Positions 5,759 through 57,756 of a stretch of DNA of 64,000 bases are shown piece by piece (within the stretch, counting starts at the first letter, position 1; every line of letters begins with the position of its first letter). This stretch comes from Escherichia phage IME178: sequence record NC_104190.1. One strand, written 5' to 3'. The position numbers and the translations under genes were made by a program. The notes below the pieces were generated by a model. The model saw only the letters and a list, made by a program, of their open reading frames with translations. It was not told the origin of the DNA and made no database searches.

Positions 5759-5788
5759 CAAAGAAAAAGGAGACCCGAAGATCTCCTT
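5759..5788 (-). terminator. hairpin with flanking T-tracts (terminator/attenuator) between nrdA and nrdB
   Basis: aaggaga-cccgaaga-tctcctt stem-loop, T-rich on both sides. Confidence 0.4.
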
Positions 5789-36173: not shown

Positions 36174-36197
36174 TTTACATATCAAATAAATAATAAA

Positions 36198-36228
36198 CCC
36201 CAATGGACAAAATCCATTGGGGTTTTTA
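36198..36228. terminator. bidirectional rho-independent terminator between convergent dut and tail-fiber gene
   Basis: 10-bp stem ccccaatgga / tccattgggg, loop caaaa, T/A tracts on both sides. Confidence 0.6.
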
Positions 36229-46262: not shown

Positions 46263-46872
46263 AGACTTTCCCGTAAATTTAATGAGATGTTGGAGTATGT
46301 TCCGTTATTATTTAGTGTAGATCCAAAAGCATCACCATTCATGAGTTTTGTTCTAAATAGTATTCCATTAAATACTGGCTTCTCCGCTCCAGTAGTAGTT
46401 ATAAATAAATCAGGGTATAAGTTTATGGACCATGTATTACCTGATTTGTTAAATGATGTTATTTTATATACTTTTGGGTGGTTAGATAGCTTAAATAGAT
46501 CCCCTGGTTTTGGAGTACCTGTAAGAAGCCCTTTTGTATCCATAGTTATATTAGAACCCTTCTGTCCAGCAGGTATACTTACTAGACTAGTATTACCTCT
46601 AACTCTAAAAGCTTCGTATTGGGGTAATATAACGTCTATATAACCACCAGTCCTTTTGTATTCTAGAATAAAAGCATCTAGAACACTATATTCATCTGGA
46701 AATAATTCTGGATAAGAAATATTTATACCCCAGTATTGAGCAGATACCTTACTTCGTTAACTTTACCATTTGGTAACTCATCACGAATTACTGGGTCATT
46801 GTCAATCAGGTTAACACTTTCGAATCCTAAGCCTGAAAGTTCTGGATTCGTGTATGGGTCTGGTAATCTCAT
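46259..46872 (-). CDS. distal tail protein (T5 pb9-like), frame-interrupted
   Basis: ATG 46872 with RBS aaagaggagaaa; frame changes near the C4 run 46727-46730; the two segments sum to ~204 aa. Confidence 0.45.
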
Positions 46873-46944
46873 AGTTAATTTCTCCTCTTTAATAACAATA
46901 TTATAATAGTATTAGAAAATTTTATCAAGAAATTTTTATTTTTC

Positions 46945-46975
46945 CATAAAGAAAAGGAGGACTCAAAGTCCTCCT
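46945..46975 (-). terminator. rho-independent terminator after tape measure gene
   Basis: aggaggact-caa-agtcctcct then TTTCTTTATGG on minus strand. Confidence 0.55.
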
Positions 46976-46981
46976 CCAGTT

Positions 46982-49900
46982 TTAAGAATTTCCTAATGTT
47001 TTCAGACTAGCACCGTTCTCATTCAGAGCTAATTCTACTGCGTCTCTTAGAGCACTACTATTACTAGAAGCAAATTCTCTGAAACTTGCAGCATCCATAG
47101 CACTAATATTCAGGATGATAGGTCTTCCTGAAGTTGAGTTAGATGAAGTTTTTAGCTCATCATTAGGTGTAGCTTTCATAGGAACCATAGGGGTAACTAC
47201 TTCTGTACCATGCTCACCCATTTGATAGCTAACCCCAGGGTACATATTACCACCCTCAGCACGAGGAACGAAGGAGTTAGCACCGCCTATACCTTTATCG
47301 CCTCGAATATAAGATAATTCACCTGCGTTAGCAGACATAGACACATCTATATTCTTTTGACGCTCTCCTAAGGTTAAGTAACTAGTTGTATCCGCTCCAG
47401 AATCTGCAATACTTGACATACCAGATGCAGAAGATGCTTGAGCAAGAGCTAAGGCACCTGCCAAACCTGCCGCCACCATCAAAGGAATAGAGAACGGGTA
47501 CGGTACAGCTGTCGCCGCTTGCATTACAGCTACTGCAGTTTGGATGATGATCTGCTTCTTAGCTGCGTCTTGTTGAATCTTCAACTTTTCAGCTTCTAGT
47601 TTCTTCAACTTAGCTTTAGATGCTTCTGATTTACCATCACGTTTCTGCTCTGCTGCAATAGCCTGATCAATTGCACTAACCTGTTGACTAGTACTATATT
47701 GAATCATAGAGGCCACAGTCTGCATACCTGCTGCGATCGTGGAAGTAGTGTCTAAAGACCCCATAGAGAACTGAATCATAGCATTGGTTAAATTACCCAT
47801 GCTTTGAGCTACAGCAGTTGCTTCGGAATTTAACTCAGATAGTTTAGAAATTGCCTGATCATAAGAAGCCATTCTATTTCCCATATCAGCAAAATCTTTA
47901 TCTTCTCCAGATAGTCCAGTTGTAGGAGTGTACACAGCACCTAAAGAAGATCCAACAGAAGCTTGCATCTCCGCATTTCTCTGTGCCCTTAAACCTGCTA
48001 GTTGTGCCCTAGTTTCAGCTATCTTTTTATTATATTCCGCTTGTGCCGCAGCATTACCTAATGTTTTCTGCTTTAAGTCTTCATATAATTTTAGCTGTTC
48101 CTGTAAGCGCTCCGCATTTCCCATTAATGGTTTAGCAGTAAATTGTCTTTGCTGTTCTTCCTCTCTACCAGCAGCCATTGAAGCAATCTGATCTTGGCGG
48201 AATTTCCAGATTTCACGTTCAATTTGGGCTTGAGCACGTCTAGACTGTTCCGCCTCTTTCTGTTTATCAGCTTGTTTTGTGTACCATTCGTACTTCTCTT
48301 TTTCAACGGTCAATTCAAGATTTAACTGTGCTAGACGATACTGAGTATCTGTCATAGTACGGTTATTTAAGAGGGCTATCTCACGATCTACACCCAGAAT
48401 TTTATCTGTGTAATCCTTAACCTTCTTCTGAGCCTCCATACCCTGATTGGTAAGTTTAAGTTTCTCCAGCTGAATTTTTTCAATTTCTTTCTCAACAGCT
48501 TTATTTCCCTGATTAGTTTGAAGTACACGGCGTAAAGCAGCTTCTTGCTCTTCTAACTGTTGGAGTTCTAAACGCCTACCGGCTTCCTGTGCCTTTTCTT
48601 TATCTTTAGTTTGATTGTATACGTCAGCTATCTTCTGTTGAACTGCTAACTGGTTCTTAGTCTCATTACCAGTTAGTTTAACGTACTCAGATAAGGCCTG
48701 AGACGCAGTTTTCATTTCAGACAGAGTATTGTAGCCTAGGTTAAGATTTTTAACATATTCATCAGCACTCTTACCAGTACCTAGAGATAGAGATTCTATG
48801 TTTTTTATAGCATCTGCTAAAGTAGCACTAGTTTTAGCAGCAGTATCTGTATTCTGAGCAACGTTCTGTATATCATTAGCTAAGTCACTAGCAGTTTTCT
48901 TAGTCTGATTGTACGCTTTCTGCTGCTCAGTTAGTCCTTTTAATACAGTAGAGTTAAAATCGTATACAGCGCCAGGATCTGTAGAATCTCTCTGTAGATT
49001 AATCTGTTTCTGAAACTGTGGATTAGCTTTTGCAGCAGCAGCTCCAGCAGCTTGATACGCTGATTTCCAAGCATTGAGGTTCTCTGTAGAATCCTCTACT
49101 TCCTTACCAAGTCTAGTTACTTGTAGACCCATAGCTGCAGTTTCTGCTACAAATTGCTTATTGGCCTCCGAAGCACCTGCTGCTGCAAGACCAATAGGAA
49201 TACCTTCGCCAACTTGACGTATAGCTAGTTTTGTATAGAAATCTGCTTGTTCCATTCGTTTATCGAACTCAGATTTTAGCTTATTACGCTTATCAAGAGA
49301 TTCCTTATACATATCTAGAGCTTTATTATAGCCTTCTTCAGAAGCAGCTAAACTTAAAGCAACAGCACCAACGTTGGTAGGGTCTATCTGTCTATTAGTT
49401 TTTTCTTGAGCTCTAGCTGCCTCCGCAGATATAGAAGCCTGAGATGTATAAAATACTGTATTGATAGCATCAATTACCGGCCCTAAATACTTAGCAGCAG
49501 CTTGTTGTATTTTTCTTAGTGCAGCATCTGCATTAGCAGCAAATTGCTCCCATGGAGTTGCACGTAGTACTTCATCTAGGTAGCCAAACCGCTTAGTAGA
49601 TTCAGCAATTACCGCGTTAGCGTATGCTTGTTGTTTCTGGAAAGTGGTAAGACTATTAACATTATATGTTATACCTGTGTTTGCAGCATTTAACTGTTTA
49701 ACATAATCAGCATATGCGTCATTAAGACGGATGGTGACACCAAGTTCATCCAGAAGTTCGATTTCTTGTTTAGATACGCCCTTAATTACACGGTTAAGTG
49801 CATCAGTCATATCAACACCAAGAACAGCAGCAGCACGACGAGCTACTAAACCAAATTTATTAAGTTGTTCGGCATCAAATCCATAAGCAGATGCTGAAGA

Positions 49901-50662
49901 TGCCTGTCTCATTGCTTCCTCAAAAGAAATAGCATATCCAGCAGCTTCTTGTAGTGATCTAGCAAGGGTCTGAACAGGAGTACCTGTCTGAGTACCTACT
50001 ATAACACCAAATTTTTCTAGACGATTTAGCTGATCACCTAGTTTAAGTTGTTCAAATGCTGATTGCAAAACGAAGATGTTGGAAGCAAGAGCTGCGTACA
50101 TAATAGGTAAACTACCACCGATCTTAGCCATTGCCGCAAAATCACGAGTTGCACCACGTGCTGAACCAGAAGTATTACCAATAGCTCTAGAAGCTCTACC
50201 AGCGGCACCAGCAGTATCATTAAAACCCCTAGCTGTGCCACCTAATGCTCTATTAGTATCATATAATCTATCCTGGACTTTTTCTGTTGCAGCTGCAACA
50301 TCATTACCCATTGTTTTAACAGATCTAGAAACTCCATCGAATCCAATTTCTAGTTTATCTGTTACTTCAATAAGCTGGATAGCCAGGTAGTCTAGCTTAT
50401 CACCAATACCATCAATGGATTTAGTGATACCAGCCATACCCCTACTAGCTTGCATTTTAGTAAGACTTTTCGCTGCTCTGTCTGCTGCCCTCTCAATGGA
50501 ATAAAGAGTTCTGGGCATTTTACCTAACTGCTCATTTGTCAGTTCGGAAGCAGCAGCAGCATTTTCCAACGCATCAGATACGTTTTCAATAGACTTTGCA
50601 GTACGAGTTGCCCCCTTCTGTTTAACGTCTATTAGTAATTCTCGTATTAGCTTATCAGTCAT
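46982..50662 (-). CDS. tail tape measure protein (T5 pb2-like)
   Basis: 1226 aa, long coiled-coil-rich sequence with hydrophobic segment near C-terminus; size and position. Confidence 0.85.
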   Translation of the reverse strand: MTDKLIRELLIDVKQKGATRTAKSIENVSDALENAAAASELTNEQLGKMPRTLYSIERAADRAAKSLTKMQASRGMAGITKSIDGIGDKLDYLAIQLIEVTDKLEIGFDGVSRSVKTMGNDVAAATEKVQDRLYDTNRALGGTARGFNDTAGAAGRASRAIGNTSGSARGATRDFAAMAKIGGSLPIMYAALASNIFVLQSAFEQLKLGDQLNRLEKFGVIVGTQTGTPVQTLARSLQEAAGYAISFEEAMRQASSASAYGFDAEQLNKFGLVARRAAAVLGVDMTDALNRVIKGVSKQEIELLDELGVTIRLNDAYADYVKQLNAANTGITYNVNSLTTFQKQQAYANAVIAESTKRFGYLDEVLRATPWEQFAANADAALRKIQQAAAKYLGPVIDAINTVFYTSQASISAEAARAQEKTNRQIDPTNVGAVALSLAASEEGYNKALDMYKESLDKRNKLKSEFDKRMEQADFYTKLAIRQVGEGIPIGLAAAGASEANKQFVAETAAMGLQVTRLGKEVEDSTENLNAWKSAYQAAGAAAAKANPQFQKQINLQRDSTDPGAVYDFNSTVLKGLTEQQKAYNQTKKTASDLANDIQNVAQNTDTAAKTSATLADAIKNIESLSLGTGKSADEYVKNLNLGYNTLSEMKTASQALSEYVKLTGNETKNQLAVQQKIADVYNQTKDKEKAQEAGRRLELQQLEEQEAALRRVLQTNQGNKAVEKEIEKIQLEKLKLTNQGMEAQKKVKDYTDKILGVDREIALLNNRTMTDTQYRLAQLNLELTVEKEKYEWYTKQADKQKEAEQSRRAQAQIEREIWKFRQDQIASMAAGREEEQQRQFTAKPLMGNAERLQEQLKLYEDLKQKTLGNAAAQAEYNKKIAETRAQLAGLRAQRNAEMQASVGSSLGAVYTPTTGLSGEDKDFADMGNRMASYDQAISKLSELNSEATAVAQSMGNLTNAMIQFSMGSLDTTSTIAAGMQTVASMIQYSTSQQVSAIDQAIAAEQKRDGKSEASKAKLKKLEAEKLKIQQDAAKKQIIIQTAVAVMQAATAVPYPFSIPLMVAAGLAGALALAQASSASGMSSIADSGADTTSYLTLGERQKNIDVSMSANAGELSYIRGDKGIGGANSFVPRAEGGNMYPGVSYQMGEHGTEVVTPMVPMKATPNDELKTSSNSTSGRPIILNISAMDAASFREFASSNSSALRDAVELALNENGASLKTLGNS

Positions 50663-50675
50663 GTTTTATTTTTCC

Positions 50676-50709
50676 CAATAAAAAGGCTCTGGGCAAATCA
50701 CCCAGAGCC
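50676..50709 (-). terminator. terminator-like hairpin immediately upstream of tape measure start
   Basis: ggctctggg-caaatca-cccagagcc then TTTTTATTGGGAAAAATAAAAC-ATG on minus strand. Confidence 0.5.
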
Positions 50710-50744
50710 AAGCCTCATCGTGGAACGCCCATTGGAGGAAAATT

Positions 50745-53901: not shown

Positions 53902-54387
53902 TTATCTGCGAAGTGACCTACGTGGAGGCTGATACCTCACTGTTACATTTATTTCTGCTAAACCATATGGGGCCAGTAGACCCTCATCTGTACTAACTGA
54001 TGTAATGATCATATCAGTTGCCTCACATGGGAAGGTCGATCCATTAGGTTTACTAACAGTATATTCTAAATTTCCACCTGTGTCAATAACGGTTTTTATA
54101 TCCGCTACGAGTTTTTCAAGTTGCTCTTGAATGTCTGTTTTCTCTTTATCGTACACCAGGATTGGAAGTTCTAAAAACATCCACTGTTGGCCCGAAGGAA
54201 GATACTGCCCAGTTTCAGTTCCGATATGAACTGCCACATAAGGAAACTCTCGTATTTCCTCAAATTTATAAGTTTGACGAGAAACGTTTCCATATAGGTT
54301 ATTAAAATATTCGTCAGGTTGAGAACCATCCAACTGTTTAGATATACGGTCAACCAGAGCTTGTGCAATACTTGTTCTATGATCCAT
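53902..54387 (-). CDS. head-tail connector/completion protein (hypothetical)
   Basis: 161 aa; position between capsid and tail tube genes. Confidence 0.45.
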   Translation of the reverse strand: MDHRTSIAQALVDRISKQLDGSQPDEYFNNLYGNVSRQTYKFEEIREFPYVAVHIGTETGQYLPSGQQWMFLELPILVYDKEKTDIQEQLEKLVADIKTVIDTGGNLEYTVSKPNGSTFPCEATDMIITSVSTDEGLLAPYGLAEINVTVRYQPPRRSLRR

Positions 54388-54390
54388 TTA

Positions 54391-55159
54391 TTAGGTTCCT
54401 TGATTAACCTTGATTTTATATCTAGAGTGAATCAGGTCTCTTGCAGCTTTTGCTATAGCCTCACCAATAAGTTTTTGGGGGTTTCTAGCGCCTGGGTAAG
54501 GTCGTAGAGATAATCTTTGATATGTAGATACTGCTGGATTAAATACAGAATATGGACGTACCATATAATTATACGTCACGTTTAATTCAGGAGCACCTTT
54601 ACTAGTCTCTGCATCTCTAAGCATAACATCCTTAATTTTCAGAGAATTTGCAAACCTGCCAGTTCTAAATTTTAATGGCGCTCCTGTCTTTTTCATATCC
54701 TTTATTAAGTACTCTTTAGCAACTATCTCTAATATAACCTTCATATTGCTATTTGATACAAAACGTCCGGAAGCACCTGTTACTGCACCTGAGTATCCAT
54801 CCTCTACGTCTCTAGGATCCCCAAAGTTTACCTGTACTCTGCCTGTAGAACGTTTTTTTACCTACAGAGGATTTTTTACCCGCGGTTGCTTGTATTAAGT
54901 TCTCTAGAGCACCTAAATCCCCCGAAAGATCTAAACTAGAGGATACTGCTTTTAGTATAGAGGCTGTTCTAACATCAAGAAGATCTTGTGATACGGGTTT
55001 TGAAAACTTAAAAGATACTTGAGCAACAGTACCATCTCTGGTAGGATCTTTTAACCCTGTCTCAACAGAATACACAACAGTATTCTTATTATTTTCAGAT
55101 CGTCCTGCAGTATCTAGCTGCTCTTTAATAATTTGTTTAGCTAGATCGGAAAGAGACAT
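54391..55159 (-). CDS. head-tail joining protein, frame-interrupted
   Basis: 115-aa and 117-aa ORFs are co-linear; frame change at T7 run 54823-54829. Confidence 0.4.
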
Positions 55160-55671
55160 TATACTCTCCTATACACTTCAATAATAGTACGAATATGCTC
55201 TGGGATACCAGACTTAGTGCTATTGAAGGTTACTGTTTCACCACCAATTGTTTTAGCTTGGCGGTAATCTTGTTTGTGCCAATGATCTACTAACATACAT
55301 GCTGCAAGTTTGAGATCTTCAGGTATTGGATTGAATCCACCTTGTGTATATGCTACATCCATATAACCTTCTGGAGGATTAAATTTGAGAAGGATAATAC
55401 CATCAGAGTATAGCTTATACTGCTCTGGGTCAATCTCATTATCGTTAATCGTCACTTTAGTTACGGAGGTAGCAGATGGTGAGCTCAGAAAATATTTCCT
55501 ACGTGTAGGTTTTGTATTGATTAACTGGTCTACCGCATCAGCATCATCCATGCCTAGAAGGCTCGTAATCAGCGCATTGGCAGCAGTAATCATCATTTCT
55601 ACACCAGATTCTAATTCAGGTCGTTTTAAACCACCATATAATCTATAATCTTCGGCTGTGATGATTTGCAT
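55159..55671 (-). CDS. head completion protein (hypothetical)
   Basis: 170 aa; starts 20 nt after hairpin + AT-box element. Confidence 0.45.
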   Translation of the reverse strand: MQIITAEDYRLYGGLKRPELESGVEMMITAANALITSLLGMDDADAVDQLINTKPTRRKYFLSSPSATSVTKVTINDNEIDPEQYKLYSDGIILLKFNPPEGYMDVAYTQGGFNPIPEDLKLAACMLVDHWHKQDYRQAKTIGGETVTFNSTKSGIPEHIRTIIEVYRRV

Positions 55672-55680
55672 TTATTTTTC

Positions 55681-55711
55681 CCAATAAAAAAGGAGAGCCG
55701 AAGCTCTCCTT
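55681..55711 (-). terminator. strong rho-independent terminator after major capsid gene
   Basis: 9-bp stem aaggagagc / gctctcctt, loop cgaa, then TTTTTATTGG on minus strand. Confidence 0.6.
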
Positions 55712-55730
55712 ATCGGCTGAAAAGCCTGTA

Positions 55731-57107
55731 TTAAGATGCAGCGTAAGTACCGGATACAACGCCGTTATTAAAGTAACGTTGCAGGTTAACACGCTGGGTA
55801 ACGTAGTACGCGTCACGCTGTTTACCAGCTTGGCGCTCACGTTCAACAGTAACAGCACGCTGACGCGGCATTACAAAGTTATCTTTATAAACGATAACTG
55901 CGAATTCTGCGGAAGCAGCTTTAGCAGGGAAGTATTCAGAAACTACAACTGGCAGACCATAAATACGACCAACCTGACCTTGCAGTTTAACAGCATCGTT
56001 ACCAACCTGTGCAACATCCTGCCATTCTTCATCTTCCAGCAGATCGTAATAAGCATCCATAGATACGATCAGTACTAGTTTGCTAAGTTTCAGACCATGA
56101 CGGCCCAGTTTACGACGCAGTTTAGAAATAGTTTTAGCAGTTACTAATACAGAACCATCAGCTTTAGCCTCGGTAACAACCTTAGCACTATCTTCGCTAG
56201 CAAGGGTCAGCAGACCTTTCGGCTTACCAGAACCATCACCAGTCATGAAAGCTTCTTCGATAGAAACAGCGTGTGCTTCAATCAGGCGTTTACGCAGCAG
56301 AGGCAGCAGAGAGAAGATTGCATCTTCTTCAGTTTCATCAGTAATGAAGGACTTAGCAGCTAATTTGTAAGTACTGAAATGAATTTCAGTCAGAGCACCT
56401 TTAACTTCTTCACCAGTAGTTGCATCAGTACCATAAGTAGAAGCAGCAACCCAAGTAGCTTTACCAGCATCTGGTTCAACTAGCATAGTAAGAATCTTAC
56501 TAGACATCGGCAATTCTTCGAACAGTGCACCAACTACCAGCTCTTTCTGCAGATCACGAATGATACGCTGGGAGAAAATAGTTTCATAGTTTTCACTAGA
56601 AACCTGAACTGAAGAAGAGGTGTTTACAGCTTTAAGGTGATTCTGACCATGTTCAGTTTCGAATACGCCTTTTTCCATTACATAAGATAGCAGAACTAGT
56701 TTTTCAACTTCATCTTCGAAAGCTTCCTGAGTACCATACAGTGCTTTAGCTACGCTATCACCGACGAAGGAACGTCCTTCACGAGCTGCCAGTAGAGATT
56801 TGATTTCGTCCTGAAGACCAACAATAGTTTCCTGTTGTTTTTCTACAGTCTGTGCAAACAGTTCTGCGCTCTTTTTAGATTTTTCATCCAGGGATTTAAC
56901 CAGTTCCAGAGCTTCTTCTAGCTTCTGACGATCTTCGCCAACTGCTTTAGAAACCAGATCATTCATACGAGCCAGTTCTTTTTCTTCCTGCTCTTTACGC
57001 ATACGTTCAGCTTCAGCAGCTTTCTGAGCAGCGGTCAGACCTTCCAGAGATTTAGCCAGATCACCCAGACCAAGTTCTTCTTTCAGCTTATTAATATCAA
57101 TAGTCAT
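55731..57107 (-). CDS. major capsid protein precursor (T5 pb8-like, HK97 fold with N-terminal delta domain)
   Basis: 458 aa (the size I recall for pb8); coiled-coil N-terminal ~150 aa then capsid body; optimal codon usage. Confidence 0.85.
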   Translation of the reverse strand: MTIDINKLKEELGLGDLAKSLEGLTAAQKAAEAERMRKEQEEKELARMNDLVSKAVGEDRQKLEEALELVKSLDEKSKKSAELFAQTVEKQQETIVGLQDEIKSLLAAREGRSFVGDSVAKALYGTQEAFEDEVEKLVLLSYVMEKGVFETEHGQNHLKAVNTSSSVQVSSENYETIFSQRIIRDLQKELVVGALFEELPMSSKILTMLVEPDAGKATWVAASTYGTDATTGEEVKGALTEIHFSTYKLAAKSFITDETEEDAIFSLLPLLRKRLIEAHAVSIEEAFMTGDGSGKPKGLLTLASEDSAKVVTEAKADGSVLVTAKTISKLRRKLGRHGLKLSKLVLIVSMDAYYDLLEDEEWQDVAQVGNDAVKLQGQVGRIYGLPVVVSEYFPAKAASAEFAVIVYKDNFVMPRQRAVTVERERQAGKQRDAYYVTQRVNLQRYFNNGVVSGTYAAS

Positions 57108-57124: not shown

Positions 57125-57756
57125 TTATTCTTTAACGTAGCCTAAAGCTATCGCAAGTTTTTCTAGTTCAGAAAGATTACGTTCTTGAGCTGGGACAGCT
57201 TTAGAACTTATTGCAGTAAAAGATTTACGCCATTCAGTGTAATCATGACCATTCATGCTCTTAGCGAGATTGAATGTTGAGTCCTGATTACAAGGTACAG
57301 AAACTACCGAACTTCGTATAGTTCTAAATCTTTAATAATAAATATATCAGTAGCTTCATCCCACTCTGCATCTAGGCAGCGGAATCCGATACTAAAAGTT
57401 TTCAGTACACCGTTTCTAATTAGTGAAAAGATAGCCGGATCAGAACTTTCATAGATCTCGCATTCGATTTCGAGACCCATTTCAGTAGGGTTAAGATCAA
57501 TACACTTGCCGATTGGACGACGATGGTCGTGTCCGAAAAGAATAATCGGGTTTTTCATATAGTTAGCAAGTGCATTAGATGTTTTCCATGCCGAAGCAGG
57601 AATTACATCACCAGCACGATCTTTACTAATTGTATTAGCGAATCCACGGATCTTTACAACACCTTCTTTGGATTCGCTATCAATAGATTTAATATAAGCA
57701 TCTAAATGAACCGGTGCTGATTTTAACTTGTTATAGTCAATAGCAGCTTGTGTCAT
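57125..57756 (-). CDS. prohead protease (HK97/U35 family), frame-interrupted
   Basis: PIILFGHDHRRPIGK and LKTFSIGF (catalytic His/Ser context); 150-aa ORF stops at 57304 but a -1 frame continues ~57 codons to a stop 17 nt before capsid ATG; total ~208 aa. Confidence 0.6.

Follow-up and report, generated by a model that had tools for sequence, protein, structure and literature searches.

What is the function of a hairpin and an A/T-rich box that recur together at three gene boundaries of a single phage late operon? An earlier note on this DNA had placed such an element on the minus strand at 46930-46980, 50665-50715, and 55668-55712, and had read it as a combined terminator or attenuator and re-initiation or late-promoter element. 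All three copies are present at these positions. The window (the whole 64-kb stretch analyzed here) is from a Tequintavirus, a T5-like phage of the Demerecviridae; the 10-kb stretch around the sites is 95-97.5% identical to the T5-like coliphages AZ23, Lindwurm, and AKFV33, and the same stretch matches 550 Demerecviridae records. The virion genes all lie on the minus strand, in the order receptor-binding protein, terminase, portal, protease, major capsid protein (MCP), head completion, neck and tail tube genes, two tape-measure-chaperone ORFs, pb2, distal tail protein, and baseplate. The genes that flank the sites most closely are the following:

55731-57107, minus strand: MCP gene, with its stop codon at 55733-55731
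55159-55671, minus strand: head-completion gene
46982-50662, minus strand: tape measure gene pb2, with its stop codon at 46984-46982

Judged by ORF order and by synteny with the phages PSTCR5 and Spivey, the late region would lie wholly inside the window, and the late operon appears to end at a bidirectional hairpin at 36195-36225.

Site 1 follows pb2, site 2 lies between the second tape-measure-chaperone ORF and pb2, and site 3 lies between the MCP and head-completion genes. Each consists of a hairpin and the segment that follows it:

46953..46977, minus strand: site 1 hairpin, GGAGGAGGAC-TTT-GAGTCCTCCTTT (RNA GGAGGAGGAC-UUU-GAGUCCUCCUUU), which starts 5 nt past the pb2 stop
46929..46952, minus strand: site 1 box, the T-tract tail UCUUUAU and GGAAAAATAAAAATTTC
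50685..50709, minus strand: site 2 hairpin, GGCTCTGGGT-GATTT-GCCCAGAGCC (RNA GGCUCUGGGU-GAUUU-GCCCAGAGCC)
50660..50684, minus strand: site 2 post-hairpin segment, with U-tract UUUUUAUU, GGGA at 50676-50673, spacer AAAAUAAAAC, and the pb2 ATG at 50662-50660
55690..55711, minus strand: site 3 hairpin, AAGGAGAGC-TTCG-GCTCTCCTT (RNA AAGGAGAGC-UUCG-GCUCUCCUU), 19 nt past the MCP stop
55669..55689, minus strand: site 3 post-hairpin segment, with U-tract tail UUUUAUU, GGGA at 55682-55679, spacer AAAAUAA, and the ATG at 55671-55669

The stems are 9-10 bp long and start 5 to about 35 nt past the stop codon of the gene before them (pb2, the chaperone ORF, or MCP). Their predicted energies are -15.5 kcal/mol at site 1, -19.1 at site 2, and -14.5 at site 3, and they are the three top-ranked terminator-like hairpins in the region from 44 to 64 kb. 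U-tracts directly abut the stems at all three sites (TTTTCTTTAT, TTTTTATT, and TTTTTTATT). On the minus strand, site 1 reads TAA-AACT-GGAGGAGGAC-TTT-GAGTCCTCCTTT-TCTTTATGGAAAAATAAAAATTTC-TTGATA. After the hairpin, site 2 continues as TTTTTATTGGGAAAAATAAA-AC-ATG into pb2 at 50662, and site 3 as TTTTATTGGGAAAAATAA-ATG into the head-completion gene at 55671.

The repetition itself, as reported in three copies, holds up statistically. The 11-mer GGAAAAATAAA occurs exactly three times in the 64 kb, counting both strands, where 0.07 copies are expected, and none of 100 shuffled sequences reaches three, which rules out a chance or composition effect. Sites 2 and 3 are the closer pair: their 22 post-hairpin nucleotides are identical, and they share an exact 17-mer (TTATTGGGAAAAATAAA) that has a poorer match at site 1 (TTTATGGAAAAATAAA). 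A search for further copies, which the earlier note had proposed, found none elsewhere in the window, and no other strong terminator there carries the box; the window's other strong terminators are all in the early region, where several run directly into sigma-70 promoters. Across the whole window, no Rfam family was matched at gathering thresholds. The nick sites of T5 involve GCGC-type motifs, and such motifs are absent from the box sites. The mini-ORFs in the box (ATG-GAA-AAA-TAA at site 1) are not conserved.

We compared the three junctions in T5 (L001), in 30 genomes of Tequinta-, Epseptima-, and Sugarlandvirus that a search with the head-completion protein had retrieved, and in eight distant phages (Providencia PSTCR5, Klebsiella Spivey, Proteus phage 1, Eos, Pectobacterium DU_PP_V, Pantoea AAS21, Vibrio River4, and Aeromonas Akh-2). 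Every junction compared (for Akh-2, site 3 alone) carries a stable hairpin with a T-tract directly at its 3′ end. At site 3 this covers eleven lineages (the window's own group, T5, Epseptimavirus, and the eight distant phages), and at sites 1 and 2 the same lineages minus Akh-2. The lack of conservation in related phages that the earlier note had named among its refuting conditions is not seen: nine or more Demerecviridae lineages have the hairpin and T-tract at these junctions. At sites 2 and 3, all enterobacterial genera have five or six T followed by ATT.

The three hairpins differ in how they are conserved. The site 2 stem carries compensatory double changes at four positions across genera, and nine out of nine versions fold fully. 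In Spivey and Eos, three consecutive double changes convert GGCTCTGGG/CCCAGAGCC to GGCCTAGGG/CCCTAGGCC, and Proteus phage 1 has an additional G-C to A-T swap. These stems were folded sequence by sequence, as RNAalifold on a MAFFT alignment was degraded by loop-length differences that misaligned the 3′ arms. The hairpin at the site 1 junction differs from genus to genus. Tequinta-, Priuna-, Sugarland-, and Novosibvirus and Eos share an identical site 3 hairpin, with a G-C to A-U variant in one Tequintavirus lineage (L102/L108), and other hairpins occupy the position in AAS21, River4, and Akh-2. The site 3 core has 80-100% identity between six genera, compared with 64-80% in the flanking coding DNA; over 46 nt it is 100% identical to a Priunavirus in which the flanks have only 69% (MCP) and 64% (head completion) identity.

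The T5 record AY587007 annotates a "putative rho-independent terminator" at all three sites, and the Spivey record annotates terminators likewise, with a terminator and a ribosome-binding site (RBS) at sites 2 and 3. On comparative grounds, the three hairpins and T-tracts are intrinsic (Rho-independent) terminators. The terminator or attenuator part of the earlier reading is therefore well supported at all three sites by stems, U-tracts, conservation, and covariation, and termination in vivo would be expected at each of them. The literature searched yielded no transcript 3′ or 5′ end data for T5-like phages.

Stable hairpins directly 3′ of highly expressed genes could also be mainly mRNA-stabilizing or processing structures, protecting the 3′ ends of capsid and tail-tube messages after cleavage in the box. 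RNase E prefers A/U-rich single-stranded RNA, a stretch of which follows the hairpins, and extra hairpins lie upstream. But a U-tract (5-6 T and ATT) abuts every hairpin in every lineage, and this signature of termination is not needed for stabilization. We consider it very unlikely that stabilization is the main role, while noting that stabilization and termination are not exclusive.

With the hairpins read as terminators, the function of the box depends on where the downstream genes start. The ATGs at 50662 (tape measure) and 55671 (head completion), which lie 0-3 nt past the box and which the earlier note had taken as start codons, are on comparative evidence the true starts. A TAA in frame lies immediately upstream of the ATG at 55671. 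Over the first 26 head-completion codons, differences from T5 are almost all third-position and synonymous, and the N-terminus, M-x-I-I/L-T/S, aligns across six genera. A start at 55671 gives a product of 170 aa, which fits the 19.2 kDa of the BF23 head-completion protein (PMC10644984). The pb2 start, ATG-ACT-GAT-AAG, is the same in T5 despite the extra ORF that precedes it there. In AY587007, the annotated start of the head-completion ORF (ORF137) is 26 codons too far downstream.

That these starts have no Shine-Dalgarno (SD) sequence was an overstatement. The GGGA inside the box forms 4 bp with the 16S 3′ end (-4.2 kcal/mol) and ends at a workable spacing, 7 nt before the ATG at site 3 and 10 nt at site 2. 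This is among the weakest SD sequences in the late operon, near those of the portal gene (-4.1 kcal/mol) and of pb3 (-4.3, also GGGAAA); the corresponding energies are -6.6 for MCP, -7.3 for the tail tube, -9.1 for Dit, and -11.6 for the small terminase subunit. The segments from the 3′ end of the hairpin, at which they are anchored, to the ATG are as follows:

Site 3, window, T5, and PSTCR5: TTTTTTATTGGGAAAAATAA-ATG
Site 3, Proteus phage 1: TTTTTTATTGGGTAAAATAA-ATG
Site 3, Spivey: TTTTTTATTGGGTAAAAT-ATG
Site 3, Eos: TTTTTTATTGGGTGAAAA-ATG
Site 3, DU_PP_V: TTTTTTATTAGAGGTATATA-ATG
Site 3, AAS21: TTTTTTATTATAGGTACATA-ATG
Site 3, Vibrio River4: TTTTTCTTTATGGGGAATACA-ATG
Site 3, Aeromonas Akh-2: TTTTTTGTATGTGAGGAGGCAATA-ATG
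Site 2, window: TTTTTATTGGGAAAAATAAAAC-ATG
Site 2, PSTCR5: TTTTTTATTGGAAAAATATA-ATG
Site 2, Spivey: TTTTTTATTGGAAAAAATC-ATG
Site 2, Eos: TTTTTTATTGGATGAAATAA-ATG
Site 2, Proteus phage 1: TTTTTTATAGGTGAAATTCAT-ATG
Site 2, DU_PP_V: TTTTTTATTGGAAAAATT-ATG
Site 2, AAS21: TTTTTTATTGGGTAAAATAA-ATG
Site 2, Vibrio River4: TTTTTTCGTATGGAGAAAACA-ATG

Relatives keep three features: the T-tract, a purine core that includes G and lies 6-13 nt ahead of the ATG, and a spacer rich in A and U. At site 3, other genera have cores of GGGT (annotated as an RBS in the Spivey record), GGGTGA, AGAGG, TAGGT, GGGGA, and GAGGAGG, with similar spacing; at site 2, the cores of other genera are GG, GGAG, and AGGTGA. How long the A-run is at site 2 varies among relatives, and so do the 0-3 nt ahead of the ATG. 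GGG and AGG are also among the cores found at equivalent positions in relatives. A core that ranges from GG to GAGGAGG at a kept position, next to a drifting A-rich part, is best read as an SD sequence. At sites 2 and 3 the box would thus be made up of the tail of the U-tract, a weak SD core (GGGA), an unstructured A-rich spacer, and the ATG, with probable SD use at both. Because GGGA is a poor SD sequence, translation may also rely on other features, for example the A-rich tract or ribosomal protein S1.

The alternative that the box is a late-promoter or UP element at all three sites, transcription restarting after each terminator, draws on two observations: At site 1 the box stands at the UP position of a strong promoter, and in AY587007 a "putative late promoter T5P40" of 90 nt spans site 3. 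T5P40 was annotated along with the misplaced start, 26 codons too far downstream. The box at sites 2 and 3 is followed at once by the ATG, from which the frame is coding, and there is no acceptable -35/-10 pair on the minus strand nearby; near 55600-55700 and 50600-50700, the only promoter-like pair is a 9/12 match well inside pb2. A promoter or a leaderless start at these two sites is ruled out by this geometry. The late promoter of T4, TATAAATA, is gp55-dependent and lies ~6 nt upstream of the transcription start. The box resembles it as an A/T-rich, octamer-like run near late gene starts, but reads AAAAATAAA or GGGAAAAATAAA instead of TATAAATA, lacks the T4-type motif, and leaves no space for a 5′ UTR or leader. 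The late promoters of T5 are ordinary sigma-70 promoters (PMC7472727), and the conserved promoters of the operon are unlike the box. A promoter role for the box at all three sites is extremely unlikely.

Site 1 is arranged differently. No ATG is next to its box; instead, GGAAAAATAAAAATTTC runs directly into the -35 element of a promoter:

46900..46928, minus strand: sigma-70 promoter TTGATA-17-TATAAT, with 11/12 consensus matches; the "putative late promoter T5P39" of AY587007

This promoter would drive the distal-tail and baseplate genes. The Dit gene that follows has a strong SD sequence, GAGGAG at 46887-46882, and its ATG at 46872. Counted from the sequence, the box lies at about -52 to -36 of the promoter and its A-tract at about -50 to -40, the position of UP elements and, in strong T5 promoters, of the A-rich block (around -43). 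By hand count, six of eight specified positions in the A-tract fit the consensus of the UP proximal subsite, a partial match. All genera have the same succession at this junction, a terminator, an A/T-rich run, and a promoter of the TTGA(C/T/A)A type. In AAS21 (TTTATGCAAAAATAAAAAAG), GC stands in place of GG and the A-tract is retained, which agrees with an A-tract acting in DNA and not with an SD sequence. At site 1 the box is thus a putative UP-like A-tract of a sigma-70 promoter, with UP activity predicted from position and composition. The likeness to the UP elements and A-tracts of rrnB P1 and of strong T5 promoters, an A-tract upstream of TTGATA-17-TATAAT, holds for site 1 alone among the three sites and is a partial consensus match.

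Re-initiation, as proposed in the earlier note, is hence supported only by the promoter that follows the box at site 1, and fails at sites 2 and 3, which have neither a -35/-10 pair nor the room for one. Similarly, the idea of one combined element at three sites gives way to two functional arrangements, although a T-tract tail and an A-rich run are common to all.

Conservation at sites 2 and 3 goes beyond the box, and two further elements lie immediately 5′ of the terminators:

50710..50742, minus strand: conserved non-coding element UUUUCCUCCAAUGGGCGUUCCACGAUGAGGCUU (33 nt), immediately 5′ of the site 2 terminator, containing the anti-SD-like CCUCC
55713..55726, minus strand: small conserved GGC-N6-GCC hairpin with GA after it, directly 5′ of the site 3 terminator

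Indels between phages show that the element at 50710..50742, which is conserved across genera and has a predicted two-step hairpin, is not coding. The GGC/GCC(GA) hairpin is kept with variable loops in all enterobacterial genera compared. These elements raise the possibility that the box (AAAAATAA) is a specific RNA or DNA operator. Its ligand, of phage or host origin (a translational repressor, Hfq, or S1, for example), would co-regulate how the head-completion and tape measure genes are translated, and the conserved 5′ elements might contribute (for instance through SD sequestration by CCUCC). The 22-nt post-hairpin identity of sites 2 and 3 is kept throughout Tequinta- and Epseptimavirus, and both this and the 46-nt identity of site 3 to Priunavirus, with its flanks at about 64-69%, seem to exceed the needs of a weak SD sequence and a spacer. 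The stem of site 3 is nearly invariant in most enterobacterial genera and that of site 2 covaries, which hints at a further constraint on the sequence itself. In predicted folds, the U-tract and the GGG region are often paired.

A search of IMG/VR bears on the same question. T5-like genomes carry the 17-mer TTATTGGGAAAAATAAA only at sites 2 and 3, and ~40 other matches are scattered chance matches in A/T-rich contigs, except for L018/L073 and L094, in which the 17-mer follows a hairpin. L018, an unrelated 42.6-kb metagenomic phage, has a different hairpin, then the same 25 nt (TTTTTTATTGGGAAAAATAAATGAC), and then its own tape measure gene. The tape measure proteins are not homologous and no DNA match was found in the phage collection, so transfer of the box together with the gene is rejected.

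Against an operator, the A-rich half is free to change outside the group of T5 and PSTCR5 (TAAAAT, TGAAAA, TATATA, AATACA), and the G core changes to ordinary SD sequences. The long-range pairings are not kept either: PSTCR5 has the same box with another upstream partner, Eos and Proteus phage 1 have no complement, and the predicted helix between the box and upstream sequence that would close around the terminator (CCGAU:AUUGG and UUUUC:GAAAA at site 3; UUCC/CGAUGAGG at site 2) is not conserved across genera. T5 lost the site 2 box to an inserted ORF, yet is viable, and the Rfam search gave no family. An operator is thus an unlikely account of the box, and that the box serves as a specific regulatory site in addition to its other roles is distinctly unlikely. 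We also think it improbable that terminator tail, box, and 5′ elements (UUUCCUCC...GAGG hairpin at site 2; GGC-loop-GCC-GA at site 3) together form a post-transcriptional control module. If they did, occlusion of the SD sequence or binding of a factor could let the module tie read-through to strict limits on how much head-completion and tape measure protein is translated, and the 25-nt design before the tape measure gene of an unrelated phage would be a shared mechanism and not a coincidence.

The reading we prefer, and consider likely, is that the late operon contains three terminators, two of them (sites 2 and 3) joined to weak ribosome-binding sites and the third (site 1) followed by a sigma-70 promoter that has a UP-like A-tract. 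Host RNA polymerase would end transcripts at the three intrinsic terminators, dividing the operon into expression segments. Sites 3 and 2 come just after blocks that end in presumably abundant products, MCP in the first case and those of the tail tube, minor tail, and chaperone genes in the second, and both directly precede genes for presumed low-copy virion proteins, head completion and tape measure. As in T5, capsid and tail tube subunits are expected to number in the hundreds, and head-completion and tape measure proteins to be present in a handful of copies.

With only 18-22 nt between hairpin and ATG at sites 2 and 3, and no promoter in that interval, the head-completion gene and pb2 would be transcribed only by read-through, so that these terminators are probably partial, that is, attenuators. 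Both genes are annotated as core virion parts, and their mRNA must therefore come from read-through. Lowered transcription and weak ribosome binding would together keep the head-completion and tape measure proteins scarce. Site 1 would end the tape measure segment, and the sigma-70 late promoter would then restart transcription of the distal-tail and baseplate genes, with a strong SD sequence. A further promoter falls between sites 3 and 2:

54058..54086, minus strand: internal sigma-70 promoter TTGACA-17-TATACT, inside the tail-terminator gene and ~200 nt upstream of the tail tube gene

It is found at the same place in eight genera, the Vibrio phage included, and would restore high transcription of the tail tube block after the site 3 attenuator. 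With T for terminator and P for promoter, the proposed layout would be [terminase to MCP]-T3-[head completion, neck genes]-P-[tail tube, minor tail, chaperones]-T2-[tape measure]-T1-P-[distal tail, baseplate, fibres], and it would match the expected stoichiometry of the virion proteins.

Parts of this arrangement have counterparts in other phages. The terminator T-phi of T7 is a leaky terminator after gene 10 (major capsid), with read-through supplying lower-copy downstream genes. Site 3 is likewise placed directly after the most abundant structural gene, with leakiness here deduced from the layout; T-phi serves a phage RNA polymerase, whereas the window would depend on host sigma-70 polymerase and has the ribosome site of the next gene fused to the U-tract. 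Promoter-early stem-loop (PeSL) cassettes were reportedly described in T4-type phages by Arbiol et al. in 2010. Site 1 and several early-region terminators of the window resemble them in that a stem-loop is followed at once by a sigma-70 promoter, but the cassettes belong to the early region, while the three sites are in the late region and sites 2 and 3 have no promoter. T5 itself (AY587007) has the terminators and T5P39 at the same junctions, with site 3 and site 1 elements that are identical or almost so; it differs in the inserted ORF that replaces the site 2 box, and its annotation in the doubtful promoter T5P40 over site 3 and the late head-completion start.

In sum, the feature is real and selected for, and also ordinary: the terminators are already annotated in T5, and no new kind of element is called for. 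The layout of sites 1-3 was mostly known already, the shared box not being noted in AY587007. The results correct the SD-less start proposed earlier and, in T5, the T5P40 promoter and the late start of ORF137. As short cassettes, the sites are natural "attenuator plus weak RBS" parts for phage engineering. For the family, they point to a tiering of the late operon into expression levels by terminators and promoters that is conserved across the Demerecviridae: a terminator after the capsid gene, a promoter before the tail tube gene, a terminator before pb2, and a terminator and promoter before the baseplate genes.

The intergenic sequence just 5′ of two of the late-operon terminators, those at site 2 (before pb2, the tape measure gene) and site 3 (between the major capsid protein and head-completion genes), contains conserved non-coding elements:

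50710-50742, minus strand: 33-nt element TTTTCCTCCAATGGGCGTTCCACGATGAGGCTT, after the stop codon of the chaperone gene and before the site 2 terminator
55713-55726, minus strand: mini-hairpin GGC-N5-7-GCC and then GA, immediately before the site 3 terminator

The site 2 element is conserved, with indels, from T5 to phages of Proteus, Klebsiella, and Pantoea, and partially in a Vibrio phage. It contains an anti-SD-like CCUCC and is predicted to fold into a CCUC...GAGG hairpin; it matches no Rfam family. Every enterobacterial genus examined retains the site 3 mini-hairpin, with a variable loop.

We also found the following signals, one of them in another phage:

5767-5788, minus strand: early-region terminator AAGGAGATC-TTCG-GGTCTCCTT, almost identical to the site 3 hairpin
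L018 9511-9527 and L073 3128-3144 (IMG/VR 42.6-kb contig of an unrelated phage): look-alike arrangement, AAAAGCCGC-TTTTA-AGCGGCTTTT and then TTATTGGGAAAAATAAATGAC
54058-54086, minus strand: near-consensus sigma-70 promoter TTGACA-17-TATACT, inside the tail-terminator gene

The early-region terminator differs from the site 3 hairpin by the change of a G-C pair to U-G, and on its 3′ side the box (the shared sequence directly 3′ of each late hairpin) is absent and a sigma-70 promoter is present (TTGCTA-17-TATAAT). In the unrelated phage, this arrangement directly precedes the phage's own tape measure gene, a gene without homology to pb2; the likeness could have arisen by convergence, through the transfer of a small cassette, or by coincidence. 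The internal promoter precedes the tail tube gene by ∼200 nt and, within coding sequence, is conserved in eight genera, including that of a Vibrio phage.

Compared with close relatives, the window carries isolated single-nucleotide indels at 57311, 54859, 51790, and 46751 that break genes for core virion proteins into pieces:

Prohead protease gene: split by a 1-nt indel relative to close relatives
Tail completion gene: split into ORFs of 115 and 117 aa
Minor tail gene: split into 252 and 64 aa
Distal tail protein (Dit) gene: split into 49 and 94 aa
43413-46262: pb3 gene, likewise fragmented

These gene-splitting indels may reflect errors of sequencing or assembly instead of real biological changes, since the change in Dit, at least, shortens a TT run. 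The site 2 T-tract (50684) has five T's in the window versus six in almost all relatives; the missing T may be a homopolymer error of the same kind, and the exact U-tract length there should therefore not be over-read.

In the T5 record (AY587007, 2677-2804), the annotated start of ORF137 (head completion) is 26 codons too far downstream, and the "putative late promoter T5P40" overlies both the terminator and the true head-completion start. Evidence for the upstream ATG as this start comes from codon-position conservation and from the mass of the BF23 protein.

The intergenic spots adjoining the site 2 and site 3 terminators acquire extra genes:

AY587007 7700-8497 (T5): 265-aa ORF that takes the place of the box, separating the site 2 terminator from pb2
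L006 16244-17005 (Vibrio phage River4): 253-aa ORF at the equivalent site 2 place
L102 and L108 (two Tequintaviruses): extra ORF upstream of site 3, between the major capsid protein gene and the terminator

The T5 ORF encodes a CapR-homology domain together with a treble-clef zinc finger, and the River4 ORF is unrelated to it.
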